Positions 10,685 to 42,883 of a stretch of DNA of 51,169 nucleotides are shown one piece after another (positions within the stretch are counted from its first letter, which is position 1; each line of letters begins with the position of its first letter). Made by a program: the position numbers and the translations under genes. Source of the DNA: a virus (lineage: Duplodnaviria; Heunggongvirae; Uroviricota; Caudoviricetes); the IMG/VR virus record IMGVR_UViG_2541047830_000012; one strand, given 5' to 3'. A model generated the notes under the pieces. It did not search any database. It was not told the origin of the DNA and saw nothing but the letters and a program-made list of their open reading frames with translations.

Positions 10685-13063
10685 TCATATTTTATTTAAG
10701 TTATTCTTTTTTAATGTCATCTCTAGTTCTTCGATACGTCTTTCTATATTATCAATTCTCTCCCAGCATTGCTGAATTGATTTAACAATAGGTGGGATAA
10801 ACTCATCGTAACCGAGTGAGTAAACATCATCCCCACCATTTTTCAAGTGATGCTGTAGCCCACCGAACTCAACACCTAATTTTTCACACAGTTTCAATAC
10901 GTCCTGTGCAATAAACCAGTGATGGTATCGTTGACGTTTTTTACTGCCGTCAGGAGTTTTCTGCACTACTTCAAGATATTTTTCTTCGACATTCTCAATA
11001 GCTGATATAGTAATTCCATCAACATCTCGTTCTACTTTTTTTGGTACAATTCTTGTCTTTTCAATAACATCAATATAATCATCACGCATATCCCAGCGAC
11101 CATCGACAGGACGAAGCCCAAGGATAAATTCAATCCCCAGCAAAGTATCTCGGATATCTGTTTTATCACGCGCATCAGATCTGTTTTGCACAGTTCCATA
11201 TACATACGTCGTTGTGGAAGAATTGCCAAGCTGCACCTGATTACTTCCAGACACTCTTGCATCATTGCCAACAGTTGTTGTGTTGGTAAGTGATGATGTG
11301 CTTTCCCCTGATTGAGTTAATCTACCTGAATTATGTCCAATAGCCGTGTTTAATGCGCCGGTTGTATTTGTGACAAGAGAGCCAGACCCAATTGCAACGT
11401 TACTGCTTCCCGATGTTGTTCCTTTTAATGCCTGCTGTCCAACCGCAACATTATTATCACCCGTTGCTGCTATAAGTGCCATGTGACCAATAGAAACGGT
11501 AAATGAACCTAGCGTTTGAGTTTCACCGCATGCACCATAACCAATTACAACAACATTATCTGTAATTGTTGACTCGGTTGCCGCTCCAGCACCAATAACA
11601 ACGCTTTCATTCCCGGCAAGATTCTTGCGCATTGCGAACATTCCAATGCCAACATTATCATGCCCAGTCCCTGTACCTGCTGCCTCCGCAGCACCAAGAC
11701 AGTTTCCCGCTCTGTAGCCAACCATGGTGTTATTTGAACCAATAGAGAAGTCTCCGGCAAAAGAGCCTACGTATACACTATTAGACTGTGAGTAATCTCC
11801 AGGATTTCCATTCGCCCGATATCCTACTGCAACTGTATAAATAGTATCTGGAGCCTCAGCCATGGCCTCAAAGCCAACTCCAACGTTATATCTACCGCCC
11901 TTAACTTTTTCTCCTGCACCAAGTCCGAAGAATGAGTTATAGCTCCCGGTTGTTAGCCACTCGCCAGCAACAGAACCTACAGCAGTGTTTCCTGTTCCAG
12001 TACATCGATACAAAGTCAGGAAGCCAACTCCGGTATTATTATTTCCTGAAATATTACTCATCAATGATTTTGACCCAATGGCAGTATTGTTAACACCATC
12101 GGTCAGATCCTGTAACGCTCGCGGGCCAAATGCTGTATTATCGTAACCCTTTGGCGCTGTTGTTGGATCTGGTAACTCCGGGGTTAGTTTTTCACCACCG
12201 CCACCATTGGCACAAAGATTGTAAGATCGAATAAATTCAGCCACTGGCCCAAGTTTTAAATAACCATTGGCAATATTAATTCTGACACTTACATTAACTG
12301 AGCTACCAGGAGCTTCTATTGTCCTGTCATCAACCCAGGTAAAACTCTGTGGTATCCCGTCATAAGTTAATGTCACATCTCCTTTATCATTATAATTATA
12401 GAACAATGTATAACGCTCATTTATAGATTCAGAACCTGATGATCCTCCTCTCCTCCACCACTCTGCATTATCAAAAATAAGTAATCCTGGACCATAATAT
12501 TTTCCCTTCTGACCCAAGATCATAGGAGTCGATAATCGCCACCTTCCCTCTGGAACATATACATCGATCCCAGTTCTTTCTGCGTCTTTAAACGATTCAT
12601 CACATAATAAAACACCACCTTCAACAGCACCAAATCCACGAACATCACCATTATCTCTCCATCGAGCCATTTGCAACTCAGGATACTTCTTAGCGCCATC
12701 AATGTCTTCTAATTGGTCCCGCAGCTGATCAGGATCATACTTCAGTACATTAGGAAAATAGAACTGCTGAGCACCGTAAGCATCATATACAGCCATAGAA
12801 TGGCCTTGCACAGTTACGAACTTGGCAATCTGTCCGTTATATACAGGGTAACCAGCAGCGTTAAGGATGATTGGTTGTGAAACAGGAATGTGAGAACCAT
12901 CTTCACTCTCTACATAAACCTGAATCTGGTTTTCAGGATTTACCGGGTCAGTGTCAATTTTACCGATATAAATTTTGCCATTAGCTACGGCTTTAAAAGA
13001 GCGAGCCATAGTGAAGAGTTGCGATGGCATCCCAATTACAACATTTGGGGTTATATTAGGCAT
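10685..13063 (-). CDS. Tailspike / tail fibre: P22 gp9-type head-binding N-terminus, Gly-rich repeat body, C-terminal S74-type chaperone domain
   Basis: N-terminus ([43 protein letters not shown]…) matches the P22 tailspike head-binding domain as recalled; the middle has repeated GxxNTAxGxxA motifs; C-terminal …[23 protein letters not shown]… resembles the self-cleaving chaperone of endosialidase-type fibres; start at ATG 13063 (AGGA 8 nt upstream), alternatives 13072 or 13156. Confidence 0.8.
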
Positions 13064-13408
13064 ATTAGTCATCCTGTTTGAAAACTTAGAAATTGAATAA
13101 AAAGGAATGACTGTAGACAAAGATGCAAGTGTTTTGAAAAATAATCTTCTATCCATTTTAAATCATGCAACACAAACAAAACGATTATTTTACAACGTGC
13201 ACGAATCTTGATCAACAGGCATATATTTTAATTGCTGAATACGTCACTTAAAAATGACAAGTACTACTTTTATTCCTATCGTCCATGATTTTAATTTTCA
13301 AATATTATTAAATAACAATTCCTATTTATAATATCTGTCATTTAATTTGCTCCAGATACAAGTAATCGCTGCAGCATGACTGCAGTGATACATAATCAAT
13401 CATACAAC

Positions 13409-13425
13409 AAGACCACCGTGGTCTT
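13409..13425. promoter_or_regulatory. Mnt-operator-like palindrome between mnt and the tailspike gene
   Basis: Perfect 17-bp palindrome AAGACCACCGTGGTCTT 63 bp upstream of mnt; resembles the P22 Mnt operator (TAGGTCCACGGTGGACCTA, recalled). Confidence 0.55.
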
Positions 13426-13487
13426 ATTGAGGATGCAACCAGCAGATAATAAGATGCCGATCCACTCACAAGAGCGAGGCATCAAGA

Positions 13488-13739
13488 ATGGGAAGAGATG
13501 ACCCGCAATTTAATCTGCGGCTACCTTACGAATTAAAGGAAAAACTAAAACAGCGAGCCAAATCCAATGGCCGCTCTCTTAATTCAGAATTAGTTCAGAT
13601 AGTGACTGATGCTGTATCAAAGCCATCCAAAATTTCAGGCTATCGAGACGATGCGGAACGCATCGCTGATGAGCAGTCCGAACTTGTTAAGAAGATGGTG
13701 TTTGATACGCTGAAGGATTTGTACAAAAAAACCACCTGA
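13488..13739 (+). CDS. mnt: Mnt repressor (ribbon-helix-helix, P22 immI-type)
   Basis: Translation MGRDDPQFNLRLPYELKEKLKQRAKSNGRSLNSELVQIVTDAVSKPSKISGYRDDAERIADEQSELVKKMVFDTLKDLYKKTT closely matches P22 Mnt as recalled. Confidence 0.85.
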   Translation: MGRDDPQFNLRLPYELKEKLKQRAKSNGRSLNSELVQIVTDAVSKPSKISGYRDDAERIADEQSELVKKMVFDTLKDLYKKTT

Positions 13740-13755
13740 CGGTGGGTTAATTTTT
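13727..13755 (+). terminator. Rho-independent terminator after mnt (possibly bidirectional)
   Basis: AAAAAAA-CCACC-tgac-GGTGG-GTTAATTTTT. Confidence 0.55.
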
Positions 13756-13838
13756 GCATTTACCTGGGCCATATTGACTACTTATAAAATGAGATCAATA
13801 TTTAATCGCCCAATAACGGGTGTATGTTGAGGTATATC

Positions 13839-14084
13839 ATGGCGAAAAAACCAGGTGAAAACACAGGAAAAACGGCGGAATATACCAAGAGGTTGGCCCA
13901 CGCGGCGGTAAGAAAGACAATTTTGCCACCGTCAAGGACAACGAAAGGCTTCCGCCAACAACAAAGCCAGGTCATGGCTGGGTATTGGATAAGCGAACTC
14001 CAGACAGCAAAAAGTAATACTCAAGCCGGGTCACTCCGGCTTTTTGATATGTCGCTCGCAGAACTCAACAAGCCTGCTCATTAA
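13839..14084 (+). CDS. Possible small basic protein convergent with the HExxH gene
   Basis: GAGGTA RBS 5 nt upstream of ATG; 81 aa; overlaps the 3' end of the opposite-strand gene, so it may not be real. Confidence 0.3.
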   Translation: MAKKPGENTGKTAEYTKRLAHAAVRKTILPPSRTTKGFRQQQSQVMAGYWISELQTAKSNTQAGSLRLFDMSLAELNKPAH

Positions 14085-14396
14085 GTAGCAGTAAGTCTCG
14101 TTGGCTCTTCCTGGTTCAACATCAACGCCGACCCTTGAGCAGATATCGAATGCCATGTGAGCGCACTCATGGGCAATAGTAGATAGTTTGCCATTGAACA
14201 CGCCTATCACATGCAAAACACCATTCTCGCTGCTCATTGTATGAGACGCTCCGTTGGCGTCCGAGTCATGCACGTCAACGCCAAGTTTTTGATGCAGGCG
14301 TTGCCATTCTGGAAAGTCTCTACAAAACACAATTGTACCGCTCTCAAAGAGCGGAACGAGCATCTTTGGTACGTTTCCAATGTTAACTTTTTTCAT
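14031..14396 (-). CDS. Small HExxH-motif protein (putative Zn-metallopeptidase-like)
   Basis: 121-aa ORF with AGGA RBS; HECAH motif (…STIAHECAHMAFDI…); sits between the ejection genes and mnt, where P22 has sieA (recalled). Confidence 0.6.
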   Translation of the reverse strand: MKKVNIGNVPKMLVPLFESGTIVFCRDFPEWQRLHQKLGVDVHDSDANGASHTMSSENGVLHVIGVFNGKLSTIAHECAHMAFDICSRVGVDVEPGRANETYCYLMSRLVEFCERHIKKPE

Positions 14397-14567
14397 GGTA
14401 TCCTGCTCAAAACTAAGGAGGTTGGAGGTTGGTGTGCTTGAATGGTTTCTGTTGGCTGCATTAGTCGTTTCTGGTTGGGTGTATGAGTATCGAATGCACT
14501 CTTATTAGACGTCAACTAGTTTTGCCGACTCGCGCCAACTATACTGGCCGCACCCTTCAGTGCGACA

Positions 14568-15323
14568 TCAAGTCGCGCTTGTTACTGCCTTCGCTGTCTT
14601 TTTCCTGTAGCTTTCACCTTTCAGTTCGAACATATATCCGTGATGGATCAGCCGGTCTGCCGCCGCCACCGCCATAGTCTCATCCACGAAGATGCTGCCC
14701 CACATGCTGAACGGATGGTTACTGGTTATCACCAGGCTCCCACGTTCATAGCGATGCGCTATTAACTCGAACAGTACTCCCGTTTCGGCGCTGTCGCGTT
14801 TGACATAGCCAAGATCATCCACCACTATCACCCGGTAGCGATCCAGTTTCAGTAGCAGCTCATTCAGTTTCAACTGCGCTCTGGCTTTACGTAGTTCCTG
14901 CAACAACTCTCCTGCGCTGTAGAACCGGGCCCGGTAGCCCTGGCCTACTACGCCATCCACGATCGCTGCCGCCAGATGGCTTTTCCCCAACCCGCTGGCT
15001 CCGAACAGCAGAACGTTTTCTCCTGCATCAACCCAGTCTGTCGTTTCACAGAGTTGCCGGAACTGAGCTCCATTCAGTTCCGGCACCTGACTGAAGTCGT
15101 ATTCGCTTAGCGTTTTGGCAACTGGCAACCGGGCCTCCTTTTTATAACGACGCAGTTTTTCACTCTCGCGCCACAGGAGTTCTTCATTGCATAGCGTCAG
15201 AAGATAGCGCGATGGTGTCCAGCCTTCTGCCAGTGCTCGTTTTTCCAGAGCGTGCCATTCAGCTCCAACTCGTGTCAGGCGTAGTTTACGCAGGCTGCGT
15301 TCAAGGTGATGGATATTGCTCAC
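14568..15323 (-). CDS. istB: IS21-family helper ATPase IstB
   Basis: Walker A GASGLGKSHLA and Walker B VIVVDDLG; typical IstB length. Confidence 0.9.
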   Translation of the reverse strand: MSNIHHLERSLRKLRLTRVGAEWHALEKRALAEGWTPSRYLLTLCNEELLWRESEKLRRYKKEARLPVAKTLSEYDFSQVPELNGAQFRQLCETTDWVDAGENVLLFGASGLGKSHLAAAIVDGVVGQGYRARFYSAGELLQELRKARAQLKLNELLLKLDRYRVIVVDDLGYVKRDSAETGVLFELIAHRYERGSLVITSNHPFSMWGSIFVDETMAVAAADRLIHHGYMFELKGESYRKKTAKAVTSAT

Positions 15324-16819
15324 TGCGAACCTCCCTTGCCACGCAGTAGTTGCTCATAACTGCTCAGGTTATGCTGTTTCACATTGACTACCGGCAACGC
15401 CTTTTCCTTTATACCCAGGAAGCGCATCAGCCGGTGCAGATCCACGTTTCCCGGGGTATTCAGCATCTGCTCCATACCTTTTGCCACGACTGAGATATCG
15501 TCGTATCCTGCAGCCAGTTTCAGAGCATGTACCATCAGCCTGCCTGCCATGTCGGGTTCCAGATGATTACATAAGCGACGCCACAGCCTCCGCCATTCAT
15601 CGTCTGGCAGGATGTCATTTCTCAGCGTTGCATGGCAGAACGCACCGGGCTTTTTTGCCAGACTGTCGATCACATGTCGGAAGTCGATACGACGGGCCCG
15701 CGTCTTCCCTTTTTCTGGTCTGACACGTGGGCAGCTCATGACCTCGCTGCTGCCAACGTAACAGCTCAGACGATCGTCCCATAACCGGACCCGTAACAGT
15801 TGACCTACAAGCCGGGAAGGTACGCTGTAGACGACGTGCTTCACATTGATGGTACTGCTGCGGCTAACCCTCACAGTCAGCTCATCATAGTCAGCACTGC
15901 GACGAAGCGGCAGCGGTTTCAGATGAAGACGTTCTTCCTTGACCAGATCCTGATTGTTACGGTTGTGCCGCATAACCTGCTGAGTGATGAAGGCCTGATA
16001 TTCTTCTATGGTGCTGAAGTCGTTACTGCCCCGCAGTATCAGCGCCTGACAGATACGCCTTTTCAGATGTCCGTGGGCACTTTCAACCGAGCCATTTTCG
16101 TGGCCCCGACCGGCATTATTGTGTACGCCCTGCATTCCGTAGTGCTGACAGAGAGCAGCATAACGCTCAGTCAGCTCGCGGCGTCCATCTTCGCCCTGTT
16201 GTTTCCATGCTGCCCTCAGGCTGTCCGTTTTATGTTCTACCGGCACTCCGCCCAGTTGTCCGAGGGCTTCCTGCAGACCTTCAGCCAGAGCAGAGAAGCT
16301 CTCACCACCCAGCACAACCCGCATCCAGCTCCAGTGGCTCCATTCCAGACGGAAGTGATACAACTTATGCGCCAACAACTTACCGGCGATGGTGACAACT
16401 ACACCTTTCAGTTCAGTAAAGTCCGACAGACCTCGCAGACCGGGCTGATGTCGCTGGCGGAACATGACCTCCTGCTCTGCACCATACTGTAGCTTCCATT
16501 CGCAGACCCGCCGTTGCATTGTTCTTCGAAGGCTGTTGGGGTACTGGCCGGGATATTTATCCTGTAGCATCTCCAGCAGAGTTGTTGGTGTCAGAGCCGG
16601 CCTCTCTTTCAACAGAGGAACAAGCATGCTGTCCCACACAGCTTCCAGAGGATCTTTGCGTGTGCGCCAGTGCCGAACACTGTTTTTTGCCCACTCTCCT
16701 TTTTCGATCCGACGACCAGAACGGACTGAGATACCAGCCTTCATGGCCGAGATATGCTGAGTTATACCTTTCTTACGCTGAGTCATATAGTAACTGACCT
16801 GAGAAGTATTGAGCGTCAC
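15320..16819 (-). CDS. istA: IS21-family transposase IstA
   Basis: 499-aa ORF with N-terminal HTH and integrase-like core, directly upstream of and overlapping istB. Confidence 0.85.
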   Translation of the reverse strand: MTLNTSQVSYYMTQRKKGITQHISAMKAGISVRSGRRIEKGEWAKNSVRHWRTRKDPLEAVWDSMLVPLLKERPALTPTTLLEMLQDKYPGQYPNSLRRTMQRRVCEWKLQYGAEQEVMFRQRHQPGLRGLSDFTELKGVVVTIAGKLLAHKLYHFRLEWSHWSWMRVVLGGESFSALAEGLQEALGQLGGVPVEHKTDSLRAAWKQQGEDGRRELTERYAALCQHYGMQGVHNNAGRGHENGSVESAHGHLKRRICQALILRGSNDFSTIEEYQAFITQQVMRHNRNNQDLVKEERLHLKPLPLRRSADYDELTVRVSRSSTINVKHVVYSVPSRLVGQLLRVRLWDDRLSCYVGSSEVMSCPRVRPEKGKTRARRIDFRHVIDSLAKKPGAFCHATLRNDILPDDEWRRLWRRLCNHLEPDMAGRLMVHALKLAAGYDDISVVAKGMEQMLNTPGNVDLHRLMRFLGIKEKALPVVNVKQHNLSSYEQLLRGKGGSQ

Positions 16820-16927
16820 GCCATTTCCTGTTGGATCATGTAAATGACACTCAGGTTACAAAACCGGCCAGAATAATCGGCGCCAGGCGGACTGAGTTAT
16901 TGTCGTCTCATACACTCTCTAACAAAA

Positions 16928-17178
16928 AAAATAGGAATTCTAGAAAACGAATATTGGGCTCTCAAATCCTCACTGGAACGTGAGCAAGGAGACTTAAAAA
17001 TCTATCTGTCTAGCATTGAGCGTTCTATAGAGAGCCTAGAGGATAAAGTTAATCGTATAAAGAATGAGGATATTCATGATATTAAGGACGATATATCCTT
17101 CTTAAAATCTTGGTTGAAAAATGTTGGTAAAATTGCCACATCAACACGAGATAAGCTCAATCCATCCATGGATGATTA
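16928..17178 (+). pseudogene. C-terminal fragment of a phage gene interrupted by the IS21-family element
   Basis: ORF without a start reads KIGILENEYWALKSSLEREQGDLKIYLSSIERSIESLEDKVNRIKNEDIHDIKDDISFLKSWLKNVGKIATSTRDKLNPSMDD*; a candidate N-terminal part (RBS TAAGGAGG, GTG 14435, VLEWFLLAALVVSGW…) lies on the same strand just before the IS. Confidence 0.4.
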
Positions 17179-17179
17179 A

Positions 17180-19348
17180 TTACTCCTGTGCTATTCCGCT
17201 TAGCGATGCCACAATTCCAGCCCTTGCTAAACGCTGGAAATCTTCGTTTCCTAGTGCATCGCGTATTGCTTTTACGGCGGCCTTATTTGCCATAAATCTG
17301 CGTTCAGCCGCCGCTAATGCGCCATCACTTGCCCCAACCTTAACTGCCTTTGTTGCCTCTTGAACAGCCTTTTCAATAGCGTAACGACCGCTTCTGGTTG
17401 CGGATAATTTCGCTATCGATCCTTTTGCTATTGCATCAATTGCTCCACCTGCAGCGCCACCCACTATTGCTCCAATAACACCACCTCCAGAGAACCCTGC
17501 GATAGCGCCAGCGGTTGGAAAAGCGCCAGACAATACGCTCTCTAAAACTGGATGAAGGCCCTTCTCAAGAGTGCTAATGGCTGGCATAGAGCGCCCTGTC
17601 TGTTCAACATATCGAAGTGGCTTTGTTGCTGCTCGTGCAAGTTCTCCGTATGAACTTGTAATCCTGCCAAGTTCTGGAGAATATCGACTAATTGCCTTCA
17701 CGTTTTGTGGGGTAAGAATAGTCGCGATATGCTTAATTCCAGCCCCTTCAGACTTACCTCCGCGCATCCCTTGCGATACCGTATCTTGCAATATTGATGC
17801 AATTGCTGGCGCGCGTTCAGACTCAGGTAGGGCGCTTATTATTTTATGAAACTGACCTGTTCCACTTTTTGCTGAGCCCTGTAACGCCTTAGAGCCATTA
17901 GTTACCAACTGATCAGTTGCAAGGTCTCTACCAAACGCTGCTTCAGCCTGTTCTTGTGCTGTAAATCTTGCCTTTGACAGATCATTAGCTTTTTGCCAGT
18001 CATCAAGAAAACCGCCATTTTGAGCCATTATGCGCATATCTTCCGTTGCTGCATCACGAAGCTCAGCCATGCGCCTTGCCGTATTTGCCTCACCAGACCT
18101 TATATACTTCTGCTCAGCGTCAGCAAGTTTACTTCGCCATGCCTTCATGGCATCAAACGTGATTCCATTTTTACCAGTTTTAGCATAAGCAGATGCGAAT
18201 TGTTTCATCTCAGGAGTTAGCGGCATGCCAGCCAAAATATCACCCTGAATTGTAGCGTTCAGGTTTAACATTCTGGCCTTTGCGTCAGGCATCGTGGAGC
18301 GGACGCTATCCCATGCGGCCTTTTCTGAATTTTTCATTTTATCAATACTTGCCAAAACCCTTTGTTTTATGGCTGCACTTTTTTCTGATGCAGTTCCTGC
18401 TTCAGCCCCAAACTCATCCAATGCTGAGTTAAATTTCGACTCTATTTCACTGAATGCTTTGGTGTGTGCATCCTGTGTAATTCCGGGCTTTGACGCCAGA
18501 ATCCCCTCCGCCTGAGCAAGACCACGACTACCTGATCTCATGCCAGGAGTTAATGCGTTGATATCTATTCCAGCGGTATCTGCTGCTTTTGCTATTTCGT
18601 CTGACACGTTAGCTGACTGTCTGGCAATAATCTCTCTTCCTGTACCAGACTTTGCCATTTTCGAAACATCAGCAGCGGAATTTATTGCCCCGCCACCAAG
18701 AACTTGAGGTGATTTAGAGGTTAAGAGCCTTCCAGCCCCAGAAAGTATCCCCTGAGCACCAATATTGATACCACCGTTAATGGCAGCATTTTGTGCAAAG
18801 TCGCCCTCCTGATTTGCAGCATCAGCAAGAGAACCTGCAATCATGTTTCCTGCGGAACCGATATCTCCAGCGAGCTTTGCTGGCGCTCCAGCAGCTTTTG
18901 CCGCTGTGCCAATTGGCAGGAGATACCCACCAATTGTTTCACCGGCTTGCGCGTAAGGGTCTGTCGGTCGATCGACAGGGCGATAAACATCATCCAAAAC
19001 CTTTGGGCCACCAAGCCCCTGGCTGATTGCATTAATCAGACTTGCGCCACCCTGTAACACGTCAAATGGTATGTTTACCAGACCACGACCAGCCTGTTCT
19101 GCAATTTGCCCTGCACTTTGACCACCAGTGAGCCAATCGCCAGCTTGTTGCATCAATGATGGTTCTTCTTTCTGCTGCTGAGGCGGAGGGTATGCTGCAT
19201 AAAACTGATCTCTTGCTTCAGCCCATTTGTCACCAGCCTTAGGGGCAACAACCTCATCAAAATATTGCGCTTGAGCCTGTGCTTTCTGTTCTTCAGTTAA
19301 CGCCTGATACTGTGGAGAAGCGATAACGTCTTTCCATGCTTTAGCCAT
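17180..19348 (-). CDS. DNA ejection/injection protein (P22 gp16-like)
   Basis: 722-aa Ala/Gly-rich ORF in the gp16 position of the P22-type order 26-14-7-20-16. Confidence 0.65.
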
Positions 19349-41977: not shown

Positions 41978-42883
41978 ATGCCAAATTTACCGATGGGCGG
42001 ATCGCAGGGTGAATTACCCTTAGTACCTACAGTAGAAGTTGTTGCTGATGGCATTCCTATGGGGGTGCTTAATGATGGAACCCCTTATCTAACTCTTTAC
42101 GGTTTAGCCAAATTATGTGGCATAGATGAAGCACCTCTTCGAATGTTTACATCTAACTGGGAGACTGAAAAAAATAAGCCAAGAGGACAAAAAGTAGCTG
42201 CATACTTAGCTGAGAAAGGATTTAACAACGTTGACCGACTGTATACCCGCGTCATAAATAGCTCAAACGTTGAAACACATGCTTATCCTGACTATGTTTG
42301 TATGGCTATCCTCCGTTACTACGCTCTAGATGCCACCAATTTTGATAGGTCAGTCGCAATAGGTAATTTTGTTCGCTTGGCTGAGTACACGCTTAAGCGA
42401 ATGATTTATGAAAAGTCAAATTACAACCCAAATGCTTCAATAGATATCTCATTCGAGAACTATAGAGCAAGGATTAAGCTAAACGATCAGATACCGACAA
42501 CTCATTTTGCAGTATTCAGAGAGATAGCTGACATTGCCATGAACCTGATCGGAGGAGGATTCCCAATGGATGACACCACATCTTTGGATGGAAGTGTTGG
42601 AATTCACTGGGGAAAGTATTGGACAGCTAATGGGCTATCTGAGAAATTCGGGGAAAGGGTGCAGTACCCACATCTATTCCCCGAAAATTACAGGCAGTCA
42701 GCTGCAAATAAGCATATAAAAGCTTGGATTTATCCTATTGAGGCACTTGGCGTGTTCAGAAAATGGCTACACGATAATTACGCAATGGAAAAACTGCCAA
42801 ATTACCTTGGGAACAAAAAGATTAGTAATGCCTCCGAGCTATTAGAGTTGATAAAAAAACCAGCACTCCCAAATAAGCATTGA
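41978..42883 (+). CDS. Uncharacterised 301-aa protein occupying the rexA-rexB position
   Basis: AAGGAAA RBS; AT-rich coding sequence; palindromes upstream and a GC hairpin terminator downstream; N-terminal segment IPMGVLNDGTPYLTLYGLAKLCGI weakly resembles Bro-N/KilA-N/antirepressor N-terminal DNA-binding motifs; rest unrecognised. Confidence 0.7.
   Translation: MPNLPMGGSQGELPLVPTVEVVADGIPMGVLNDGTPYLTLYGLAKLCGIDEAPLRMFTSNWETEKNKPRGQKVAAYLAEKGFNNVDRLYTRVINSSNVETHAYPDYVCMAILRYYALDATNFDRSVAIGNFVRLAEYTLKRMIYEKSNYNPNASIDISFENYRARIKLNDQIPTTHFAVFREIADIAMNLIGGGFPMDDTTSLDGSVGIHWGKYWTANGLSEKFGERVQYPHLFPENYRQSAANKHIKAWIYPIEALGVFRKWLHDNYAMEKLPNYLGNKKISNASELLELIKKPALPNKH

Follow-up and report, generated by a model that had tools for sequence, protein, structure and literature searches.

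In phage P22, Mnt made by the prophage represses ant. The corresponding immI region, or 'ant moron', lies between DNA-injection gene 16 on one side and the tailspike gene (gene 9) on the other, and a mnt-only form of it was described in 2008 by Villafane et al. for ST64T, ST104 and Para1 (PMC2629481). This form is also present in L, SE1, ST160 and the E. coli prophage Gally, and for phage L the question of whether mnt is a leftover or serves a new purpose was already posed by Zaworski et al. in 2021 (PMC8022706).

We analysed such a region in a 51,169-nucleotide stretch of DNA (the window) that carries a P22-like prophage from E. coli of ST131 type. An identical prophage is found in ZH063, and the same sequence occurs in many ST131 genomes. 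Judged from its sequence, the interval is almost certainly the ant moron in its known mnt-only form. We found genes 16 and 9 as flanks, mnt together with genes of unassigned function, and neither arc nor ant, which is the composition reported in 2008. SE1 and ST160 were 93% identical to the window over 13331-14425, and P22 was 97% identical over 13641-14425. A sequence-only reading had presented the locus as a newly rewired immI-like region; the layout is ordinary and was published in 2008 (PMC2629481), and little hinges on the locus itself. The features picked out by that reading, namely mnt, the palindrome, a 121-aa ORF and a small ORF, are all present. The explanation that we favour overall, and consider fairly probable, is the known mnt-only moron with an orphan Mnt of the class defined below (class B), plus a separate hkcC-orf59a cassette.

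The orphan mnt gene and its operator

The features on the tailspike side of the interval and around mnt are as follows (window coordinates, with strand in parentheses):

10685-13063 (minus): tailspike gene; the head-binding domain is of P22 type and the receptor-binding part is unrelated; the longest ORF extends to 13156
13064-13329 (minus): AT-rich leader (26.6% GC) that accompanies this tailspike type
13291-13341 (minus): relic left by an older gene-9 start of P22 type, ATGACAGATATT..., a 16-codon ORF with a Shine-Dalgarno sequence at 13348-13353
13369-13385 (minus): conserved stem-loop (7 bp) within the leader of the tailspike mRNA, CUGCAGU-CAU-GCUGCAG
13409-13425 (no strand): predicted class-B Mnt operator, AAGACCAC-C-GTGGTCTT, a perfect 17-bp palindrome (AAGACCACCGTGGTCTT)
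13427-13455 (plus): P_mnt-like promoter, TTGAGG-17-TAAGAT, whose -35 starts 1 bp past the operator
13488-13739 (plus): mnt, class B (Gln6), 83 aa
13732-13745 (no strand): hairpin at the mnt 3' end, terminator-like both ways, with T runs on either strand

The description of mnt as an orphan was borne out. In the 51-kb window, P22 Ant gave no tblastn match better than E = 3, and P22 Arc matched mnt alone (44% identity). No known RNA family, sar included, was found by Rfam over 12800-14600, and the annotated identical prophage of ZH063 names no antirepressor between dacD and sbcB. SieA likewise had no tblastn match in the window. The sar region is deleted, and the position of P_ant, on the strand opposite P_mnt, reads TCGGCA-17-TGCATC, hexamers that appear degenerate and non-functional. 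Neither a promoter scan nor a reading of the class-B alignment revealed, at the operator, any promoter of sigma-70 type directed towards the tailspike. Since arc, sar and ant are absent and the P_ant hexamers are degenerate, the sole promoter left under the operator would be that of mnt itself. Of the earlier proposal that Mnt controls the tailspike, what survives is a possible effect on transcription into that gene, itself a published speculation (PMC2629481); a tailspike promoter under the operator is unsupported.

Mnt of the window shares 77% identity with the P22 protein (tblastn E 6e-43). In Pfam it has both the N-terminal ribbon-helix-helix domain (residues 3-50; PF03869 Arc at E 2.8e-22) and the C-terminal tetramerisation domain (residues 53-80; PF11423 Repressor_Mnt at E 2.2e-18). 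The half of the gene encoding the N-terminal DNA-binding part is class-specific, and the final ~84 nt are 90-100% identical to P22. Knight and Sauer are said to have shown in 1989 that the DNA-contacting beta-strand residues of Mnt are Arg2, His6, Asn8 and Arg10 (numbered without the initiator Met), and residue 6 has reportedly been the subject of papers from the Stormo laboratory. Arg2, Asn8 and Arg10 are retained in the window, and His6 is replaced by Gln in all 68 class-B copies. Together with matching changes in both operator half-sites, Gln6 looks like a specificity variant, not a loss.

The near-P22 palindrome at 13409-13425 appears to be a variant Mnt operator and is unique: no second copy with up to 3 mismatches was present in the window, and 0.13 were expected from shuffled sequences. 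Across dozens of related loci its offset from the mnt ATG is constant at -79, and its 13-bp core GACCACnGTGGTC is unchanged even where Mnt identity is as low as 58-72%. Class-B loci with such divergent Mnt also keep the layout of tailspike, ~70 bp, operator, 62 bp and mnt. The geometry of the promoter equals that of the annotated P22 P_mnt (TTGAGA-17-TATCAT), with TTG(T/A)GG-17-TA(T/A)GAT conserved in class-B loci. We infer that class-B Mnt binds this palindrome as P22 Mnt binds O_mnt.

In the 85 loci surveyed, two classes were distinguished. Ant was present in all 17 loci of class A (His6, operator AGGTCCAC-N-GTGGACCT), and arc or ant in none of the 68 of class B (Gln6, GACCAC-N-GTGGTC). The mnt start was intact in every class-B copy. 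Between orphan copies dN/dS was 0.07-0.14, or about 0.1, with dS saturated between distant copies (for window versus SE1, dN was 0.048 and dS 0.444). Because arc and ant are absent from 68 of 68 loci, dN/dS is low and the operator core is invariant, the orphan Mnt appears to be a distinct specificity class that is functional rather than decaying.

The tailspike gene and its leader

The tailspike matched Pfam Head_binding (1.1e-63) and was 49% identical to P22 gp9 across residues 1-182. Its start is most likely at 13063 and not 13156, judging by sequence comparison: in ZH063, PGAP places the start of the gene in the identical prophage at the position equivalent to 13063, and MPNITPNV aligns there with P22 MTDITANV. 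Contrary to the claim that the operator region abuts the tailspike gene directly, ~345 bp separate the operator from this start. They contain the relic of the older gene-9 start, which was seen by sequence comparison with SE1, P22 and HK620 and is also found in JEP4 and E4, and the AT-rich leader.

Sequences 87-100% identical to the leader occur in phage JEP4 and 44 complete E. coli genomes. In JEP4 the leader neighbours another mnt type, and in strain E4 an intact ant gene. It contains a promoter-like TTGATC-17-TAAAAT at 13215-13187, whose hexamers are constant while the spacer is variable (10 variants), and an in-frame upstream ATG at 13156. A Tat-like N-terminal extension of the tailspike from this ATG is open in all variants, but its variable sites fall 4/2/5 by codon position, versus 17/4/57 in the head-binding domain, and it is probably untranslated. 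For the stem-loop at 13369-13385, 97% of cells were paired in 24 distinct sequences, with compensatory changes in 3 of 6 pairs; such values were never reached in 500 shuffles.

HkcC and the cassette with orf59a

Beyond mnt the window carries the following features:

13839-14017 (plus): homologue of orf59a (HkcD), with a frameshift near 13868-13877; the mechanical ORF continues to 14084
14023-14042 (no strand): terminator hairpin common to the convergent orf59a and hkcC; the homologous site in HK620 is annotated as the bidirectional terminator tORF59A
14031-14396 (minus): hkcC, predicted minimal zinc metallopeptidase, 121 aa, intact, H76-E77-x-x-H80 ... E100
14434-14502 (plus): 5' fragment of an hkcB homologue, by comparison with the intact gene in ZH063
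14503-16909 (minus): ISEc10-like IS21-family element in hkcB, with istA at 15320-16819 and istB at 14568-15323
16910-17179: 3' fragment of the hkcB homologue

The small convergent ORF at 13839-14084 exists as had been noted and is really a frameshifted copy of P22 orf59a. By tblastn, P22 Orf59a matched in separate frames with its residues 1-13 and 11-59; the frameshift is therefore the reason why the mechanical ORF extends to 14084. Twenty-nine other class-B loci have an intact copy, and the only broken ones are those of the window and two further loci (L008 and L009). Orf59a has a weak YjzC-like match in Pfam (E 0.006).

The HExxH protein, whose motif reads H76-E77-C-A-H80 in the window, has as homologues HK620 hkcC, SE1 gp64 and an unannotated P22 ORF, 99% identical and placed between orf59a and sieA. 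It had been taken to stand where P22 carries sieA and to be paired with mnt instead of arc-ant. P22 has this gene alongside arc, ant and sieA, which disagrees with both suggestions, and the sieA slot of the window is filled by the hkcB homologue, split by the IS21-family element. The intact hkcB homologue has one transmembrane helix and a coiled coil.

HkcC belongs to a large, uncurated family (514 representatives). The residues H76, E77 and H80 were unchanged in 19 close and 52 distant relatives. E100, also invariant, lies 20 residues past H80 and opens helix 100-116 of the AF2 model, which has a pLDDT of 89 and a beta-beta-alpha-beta-beta-alpha-alpha fold. Because only G49, HExxH and the Glu 20 residues downstream are invariant in the family, HkcC is predicted to be a minimal gluzincin, that is, an HExxH+Glu zinc protease. 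The earlier idea of a small metallopeptidase thus gains support from the invariance of these motifs in the 52 distant relatives and from the confident model. The spacing resembles that of H146 and E166 in thermolysin, and a weak sequence alignment of HkcC to thermolysin and neutral protease spans both motifs. With thermolysin-type gluzincins and with minimal zincins like PDB 3e11, HkcC would share an HExxH carried on a helix; a sheet and two helices are predicted for it.

Curated resources added little. The sole family match was phrog_1365 ('unknown function'), with none in Pfam, NCBIfam or PADLOC. The comparison with ImmA/IrrE and SprT that had been suggested for the protein favoured neither family: Peptidase_M78 (ImmA/IrrE) had no Pfam match in HkcC or the 52 relatives, and SprT-like PF10263 matched one of the 52, at 1e-4, and not HkcC itself. 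In Foldseek, SPRTN (6mdx) came up at probability 0.5. Ten longer HkcC relatives had no Pfam domains as fusions, and a literature search for 'hkcC' retrieved unrelated acronyms alone.

The gene was constantly paired with orf59a, including in tail operons of unrelated prophages without mnt among the called genes, and was present in 10 of 17 loci bearing arc/ant and 32 of 68 orphan loci. Judged from this distribution, hkcC and orf59a appear to be a separate mobile, convergent two-gene cassette. The other neighbour of hkcC is hkcB, and no gene for an XRE-type or other HTH repressor substrate is adjacent. For an ORF unexplained in P22 for decades there is now a concrete prediction, a minimal HExxH+Glu zinc protease that accompanies Orf59a.

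Possible roles of Mnt and comparison with known systems

As a tentative proposal, Mnt may be a self-regulated prophage repressor that limits tailspike-directed read-through in the lysogen. Mnt expressed from the prophage would repress its own promoter P_mnt, and the tightly bound tetramer would block polymerase coming from the late operon or the hkcC side towards the tailspike. Convergent transcription from P_mnt and the two bidirectional terminator hairpins would help to limit the read-through. Prophage Gally of E. coli LF82 has the mnt allele and operator type of the window, and in macrophages its mnt RNA rose 40-fold and its tailspike RNA ~20-fold, with injection genes at background (Misson et al. 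2023). This pattern indicates that P_late-independent tailspike-sense transcription exists in the region. Since mnt and the tailspike rise together, Mnt is no complete block of tailspike-sense RNA. Several observations argue against the proposed role. Gally mnt RNA was at background in LB, and deletion of mnt left macrophage survival unaffected. In the window the operator stands ~345 bp away from the start of the tailspike, and the conserved promoter-like site of the leader, downstream of the operator, would lie beyond occlusion by Mnt; Q-modified late transcription may ignore the roadblock, and the constant tailspike-adjacent position may reflect insertion-site history only.

A broader statement, possible although less probable than not, is that orphan class-B Mnt is an old stand-alone regulator maintained by selection, with a co-evolved operator, whose job in the lysogen is either tailspike insulation or tuning or else trans-immunity, and that the mobile hkcC-orf59a cassette encodes a new minimal gluzincin family with a dedicated small partner. 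Since mnt was induced 40-fold in macrophages, that job may depend on conditions.

Trans-immunity on its own would mean that orphan Mnt represses the antirepressor promoter of incoming phages with class-B operators, giving immI-type immunity without an ant of its own; we consider this rather unlikely. P22 prophage Mnt is a known repressor of ant, and three ES18-like uncultured phage contigs (L088, L128 and L136) have AAGACCACGGTGGTCTC between a gene for a Gln6 Mnt-like protein (MARDDPQFNLRM..., 137 aa) and an arc-ant operon. One of these contigs shares a metagenome with many class-B prophage contigs. However, the operator-arc-ant module of L128 was found neither among 5,426 complete E. coli genomes nor among species-representative genomes, and a second scan of genome contigs found one Serratia locus only. 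SPN3UB, a cultured relative, differs in its regulator and specificity and has no such operator, and all 17 sampled ant-bearing P22-like loci use class-A Mnt.

That mnt and its operator are functionless leftovers of a deleted immI is a reading already disfavoured and, in our view, very improbable. Loss of arc, sar, ant and P_ant would fit it, as would the damage to neighbouring genes in this lineage (the orf59a frameshift and the split hkcB) and the scarce expression of Gally mnt in LB with a deletion lacking a phenotype, and the phage L literature leaves the possibility standing (PMC8022706). Against it are the 68 of 68 intact starts, the dN/dS of about 0.1, read with dS saturated between distant copies, and the retention of the operator core and P_mnt even at 58% Mnt identity. 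Compared across loci, the question raised for phage L thus has an answer: orphan mnt appears to be under purifying selection, has an invariant operator and belongs to a class never linked to ant in the sampled loci, and therefore deserves a functional test.

Also very improbable is the sequence-only model of a rewired locus, with Mnt as the direct repressor of a promoter for the tailspike and the HExxH protein taking over from arc-ant or sieA in anti-repression or exclusion. No promoter-like site towards the tailspike was seen at the operator. P22 has HkcC as well as arc, ant and sieA; the protein is missing from about half of the orphan loci, is always found with orf59a even where no mnt was called, matches neither the Pfam M78 model nor any in PADLOC, and has no HTH substrate gene beside it.

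Our preferred explanation, the known mnt-only moron with a class-B Mnt, can be set against the closest described systems. The antisense RNA STnc6030 of BTP1 (Owen et al. 2020) is likewise prophage-expressed from the gene 16/tailspike junction, runs antisense to late genes, and the region has P_late-independent start sites; it differs in its RNA-based exclusion function without Mnt, and a sequence relation to the window was not detected. HK620 hkcB-hkcC-hkcD is 96.9% identical to the window across hkcC, orf59a/hkcD, the bidirectional terminator and the beginning of hkcB, but mnt and ant are remnants only in HK620, whereas mnt is complete in the window. With P22 immI (mnt, O_mnt, P_mnt/P_ant, arc, sar and ant) the window shares the Mnt fold, the C-terminal tetramerisation domain, an operator palindrome of 17 bp lying 1 bp away from the P_mnt -35, and, downstream, the orf59a-hkcC cassette at 97% identity. 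Unlike P22, it is without arc, sar, ant, a usable P_ant and sieA, has Gln and not His at Mnt residue 6, and has the operator half-site AAGACCAC in place of AGGTCCAC. The mnt-only morons of ST64T/L, ST104, Para1, SE1, ST160 and Gally have the same gene 16-gene 9 site, mnt divergent from the tailspike and no arc or ant. Among those read directly, SE1, ST160 and Gally share the class-B Mnt N-terminus, operator and P_mnt with the window; the Gally allele is ~99% identical, and SE1 also has orf59a and hkcC. The window departs from these morons in what appear to be lineage-specific changes: replacement of the tailspike along with its 266-bp AT-rich leader, which left the relic of the old gene-9 start, the frameshift in orf59a and the splitting of the hkcB homologue by an ISEc10-like element.

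Gene order of the prophage locus

The window contains a P22-like prophage of an ST131/O25:H4-type E. coli, integrated between dacD and sbcB. Fifteen complete genomes, strains ZH063 and CU568-3 among them, match positions 13000-14502 at 100% identity, and related DNA occurs in 1,170 of 5,426 complete E. coli genomes. The genes are arranged as follows.

10685-13063, minus strand: tailspike gene
13488-13739, plus strand: mnt, following the intergenic region after the tailspike gene
13839-14084 (mechanical ORF), plus strand: orf59a-like ORF, between mnt and hkcC
14031-14396, minus strand: hkcC, next after the orf59a-like ORF
Plus strand: hkcB homologue, interrupted by an ISEc10-like IS21-family element (14503-16909)
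17180-19348, minus strand: gene 16, beyond the hkcB homologue

The sequence-only reading of this region was partly supported: its orphan Mnt, variant operator and metalloprotease-like protein were right, whereas a "rewired" locus and an HExxH protein "instead of arc-ant/sieA" were wrong. Mnt is an 83-aa protein 77% identical to P22 Mnt, with Arc-type ribbon-helix-helix and Mnt C-terminal domains, and the palindrome AAGACCACCGTGGTCTT lies exactly at 13409-13425, as the sole match in the window at ≤3 mismatches (0.13 expected). No homologue of P22 Ant lies in the window, P22 Arc matches mnt alone, and annotation of the identical ZH063 prophage from dacD to sbcB names no antirepressor. The 121-aa ORF carrying HECAH (hkcC) exists, but P22 has the same ORF (99% identical; unannotated in AF527608) between orf59a and sieA. 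The proposed small convergent ORF is also real but proved to be P22 orf59a with a frameshift, which is confined to the ST131 lineage of the window, where hkcC is intact. The likeliest start of the tailspike gene is 13063, not 13156.

The IS element is flanked by a ~9-bp duplication (junction site 14486-14515), and its junction with hkcB was absent from all 5,426 complete E. coli genomes. The istB-side end of the element carries an outward TTGACG; together with a GATACT at a distance of 18 bp it makes a promoter-like site directed at hkcC. Elsewhere in the window, a 301-aa ORF without a Pfam match (41978-42883, plus strand) lies just downstream of the LexA-family prophage repressor, a position that is often the site of exclusion genes in lambdoid phages.

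Mnt classes and selection on orphan mnt

We compared 85 loci from IMG/VR contigs, reference phages and the window, which include two Mnt classes, with His6 (class A) or Gln6 (class B) at residue 6. In class A the N-terminal sequence of Mnt is MARDDPHFNFRMP, and the operator AGGTCCAC-N-GTGGACCT lies 74 bp ahead of the ATG; Ant was present in 17/17 of these loci and Arc in 13/17. In class B the N-terminal sequence is MGRDDPQFNLRLP, the operator (A/G)(A/C)GACCAC-N-GTGGTCTT lies 79 bp ahead of the ATG, and both arc and ant were absent in all 68 loci. Operator preference of Mnt is reported to be switched at residue 6, and a T-to-A change, symmetric in the two operator half-sites, fits replacement of His6 by Gln. 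A secondary citation attributes the switch to a single Mnt residue. Inside mnt, near nt 168 (window ~13655), lies a mosaic junction. Identity to P22 is 60-69% ahead of it and 90-100% from there on, across the final ~84 nt of mnt and the downstream sequence as far as 14425. The operator thus appears to have been exchanged as one unit with the DNA-binding half of Mnt. In their tail-gene region, three uncultured ES18-like phage contigs (L128 2102-3707, L136 6926-8531 and L088) encode arc, a P22-type ant and a Mnt-like protein of 137 aa, which has Gln6 and differs in its C-terminal part; the operator AAGACCACGGTGGTCTC lies there too.

Among orphan mnt copies dN/dS was 0.07-0.14 (window versus SE1, dN 0.048 and dS 0.444). 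An operator scan recovered further class B loci in which Mnt was 58-72% identical and the tailspikes and downstream genes were unrelated. These divergent loci keep the layout of tailspike, ~70 bp, operator, 62 bp and mnt; with synonymous sites saturated, P_mnt is still conserved and no change occurs in the 13-bp core GACCACnGTGGTC. The low dN/dS, invariant operator core and conserved P_mnt indicate that orphan mnt is under purifying selection and is no relic.

The HkcC family and its cassette

HkcC homologues include HK620 hkcC, SE1 gp64 and the unannotated P22 ORF. Its sole family match was phrog_1365, of unknown function, and no match was found in Pfam, NCBIfam or PADLOC. A profile search gave a family of 514 cluster representatives, nearly all stand-alone proteins of 105-140 aa. 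In 52 representatives 23-44% identical to HkcC, only G49, H76, E77, H80 and E100 were invariant, and this HExxH motif with its downstream Glu bears out a metalloprotease-like character at the sequence level. E100 lies 20 residues past the second His, the same spacing as in thermolysin, and a weak phmmer alignment to neutral protease/thermolysin spans both motifs. The structural model was confident (pLDDT 89.3, pTM 0.83) and showed a beta-beta-alpha-beta-beta order, the HExxH helix and then a helix beginning at E100. HkcC is thus a predicted minimal gluzincin-like metallopeptidase of an uncurated family. It is present in 10/17 class A and 32/68 class B loci, and its occurrence in both classes shows no tie to the absence of arc-ant.

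The HkcD homologue orf59a, which has a weak YjzC-like match, always accompanies hkcC, the two being convergent onto a common hairpin. The pair was also found in the tail operon of a siphovirus-type Rosenbergiella prophage and in another distant contig. Convergent pairs lie at the following positions.

Window 13839-14396
Locus L216, 2501-3056
Locus L209, 4001-4565

Constant pairing and occurrence in tail operons of unrelated prophages argue that hkcC-orf59a is a mobile two-gene cassette.

The tailspike leader and a possible role of Mnt

Alignment of the intergenic region with P22, SE1 and HK620 showed that the layout right of the operator is that of P22. A -35-like TTGAGG starts 1 bp past the operator, followed by 17 bp and TAAGAT (13427-13455; TTGAGA-17-TATCAT in P22 P_mnt). 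On the opposite strand, the P_ant position reads TCGGCA-17-TGCATC, unlike TTGACA-17-TATATT in P22, and these hexamers are considered non-functional. Left of the operator are the following features.

13369-13385, minus strand sense: stem-loop
13341-13330, minus strand: codons 1-4 of a gene 9 of P22 type, ATGACAGATATT, preceded by its Shine-Dalgarno sequence
13341-13291: 16-codon relic ORF of the older gene-9 start, opening the leader module
13064-13329, minus strand: leader of 266 bp, 26.6% GC, up to the present tailspike gene

The 7-bp stem-loop, ~20 nt upstream of the gene-9 Shine-Dalgarno, is kept with compensatory changes in 24 distinct sequences covering P22-like phages with either Mnt class (97% of cells paired, 3/6 pairs covarying, observed values reached in 0/500 shuffles). 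A terminator was excluded, as the T run is absent. In 44 E. coli genomes, as well as in phage JEP4, the relic and leader accompany the present type of tailspike, and in strain E4 they adjoin an intact mnt-arc-ant region; they are therefore part of the tailspike module rather than of mnt. Across 10 variants, a promoter-like TTGATC-17-TAAAAT in the leader (13215-13187) has invariant hexamers and a variable spacer. At nucleotide level, variable sites make up 12% of the leader (window 13064-13341) versus 24% of the adjacent head-binding domain. Upstream of the tailspike ORF, an in-frame extension (13063-13156, minus strand) resembles a twin-arginine signal peptide and is open in all variants. Its variable sites were distributed 4/2/5 by codon position, and this lack of bias means that the extension is probably untranslated leader. 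The tailspike itself has a head-binding domain of P22 type and a long, repeat-rich part for receptor binding; its C-terminus weakly matches an endosialidase chaperone domain (Peptidase_S74, E 0.0012).

We tentatively propose, as a possible rather than probable role, that Mnt limits tailspike-directed read-through in the lysogen. Mnt would bind the palindrome at 13409-13425 and regulate its own promoter, and the bound tetramer would stand in the way of polymerases approaching the tailspike gene from hkcC or the late operon; convergent P_mnt transcription and terminators (terminator-like hairpins lie at 13732-13745 and 14023-14042) would add to this effect. An influence of Mnt and Arc on late transcription into gene 9 was suggested by Villafane et al. 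(PMC2629481). The E. coli LF82 prophage Gally carries the same mnt allele and a class B operator, 146 bp from its tailspike gene. Gally mnt RNA is at background in LB and rises 40-fold in macrophages, tailspike RNA rises alongside (log2FC 4.4) while late-operon injection genes stay at background, and mnt deletion leaves bacterial survival in macrophages unchanged (Misson et al. 2023, PMC9928086). Work on the Salmonella prophage BTP1 (PMC7067206) found that the 16/9 junction yields an exclusion-conferring antisense RNA and that the tailspike gene is served by start sites of its own. In lysogens, therefore, transcription of this junction does not depend on P_late. The joint rise of Gally mnt and tailspike RNA counts against the read-through role, as do the ~345 bp between operator and tailspike start in the window lineage and the position of the leader promoter-like site outside Mnt's reach. 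The main rival, which we consider unlikely, is trans-immunity, in which orphan Mnt would repress ant of incoming phages carrying a class B operator; the three ES18-like contigs do hold a class-B-type operator with arc-ant on one side and a Gln6 Mnt-like gene on the other, but this operator-arc-ant module was not found in complete E. coli genomes or representative genomes, and their cultured relative SPN3UB has a different specificity.

The architecture of the locus had been described before. In the Salmonella phages SE1 and ST160, which share 93% identity with 13331-14425, mnt lies ~135 bp from the tailspike gene with an hkcC homologue downstream; the mnt-only layout has been in print since 2008 (Villafane et al., PMC2629481) and appears again in the phage L genome paper (PMC8022706). 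The locus thus corresponds to the mnt-only variant of SE1, ST160 and phage L and involves no new rewiring. What is new is comparative: a Gln6 operator class without any link to ant in the loci compared, purifying selection acting on orphan mnt, a conserved hairpin in the leader, the HkcC gluzincin signature and the hkcC-orf59a cassette.
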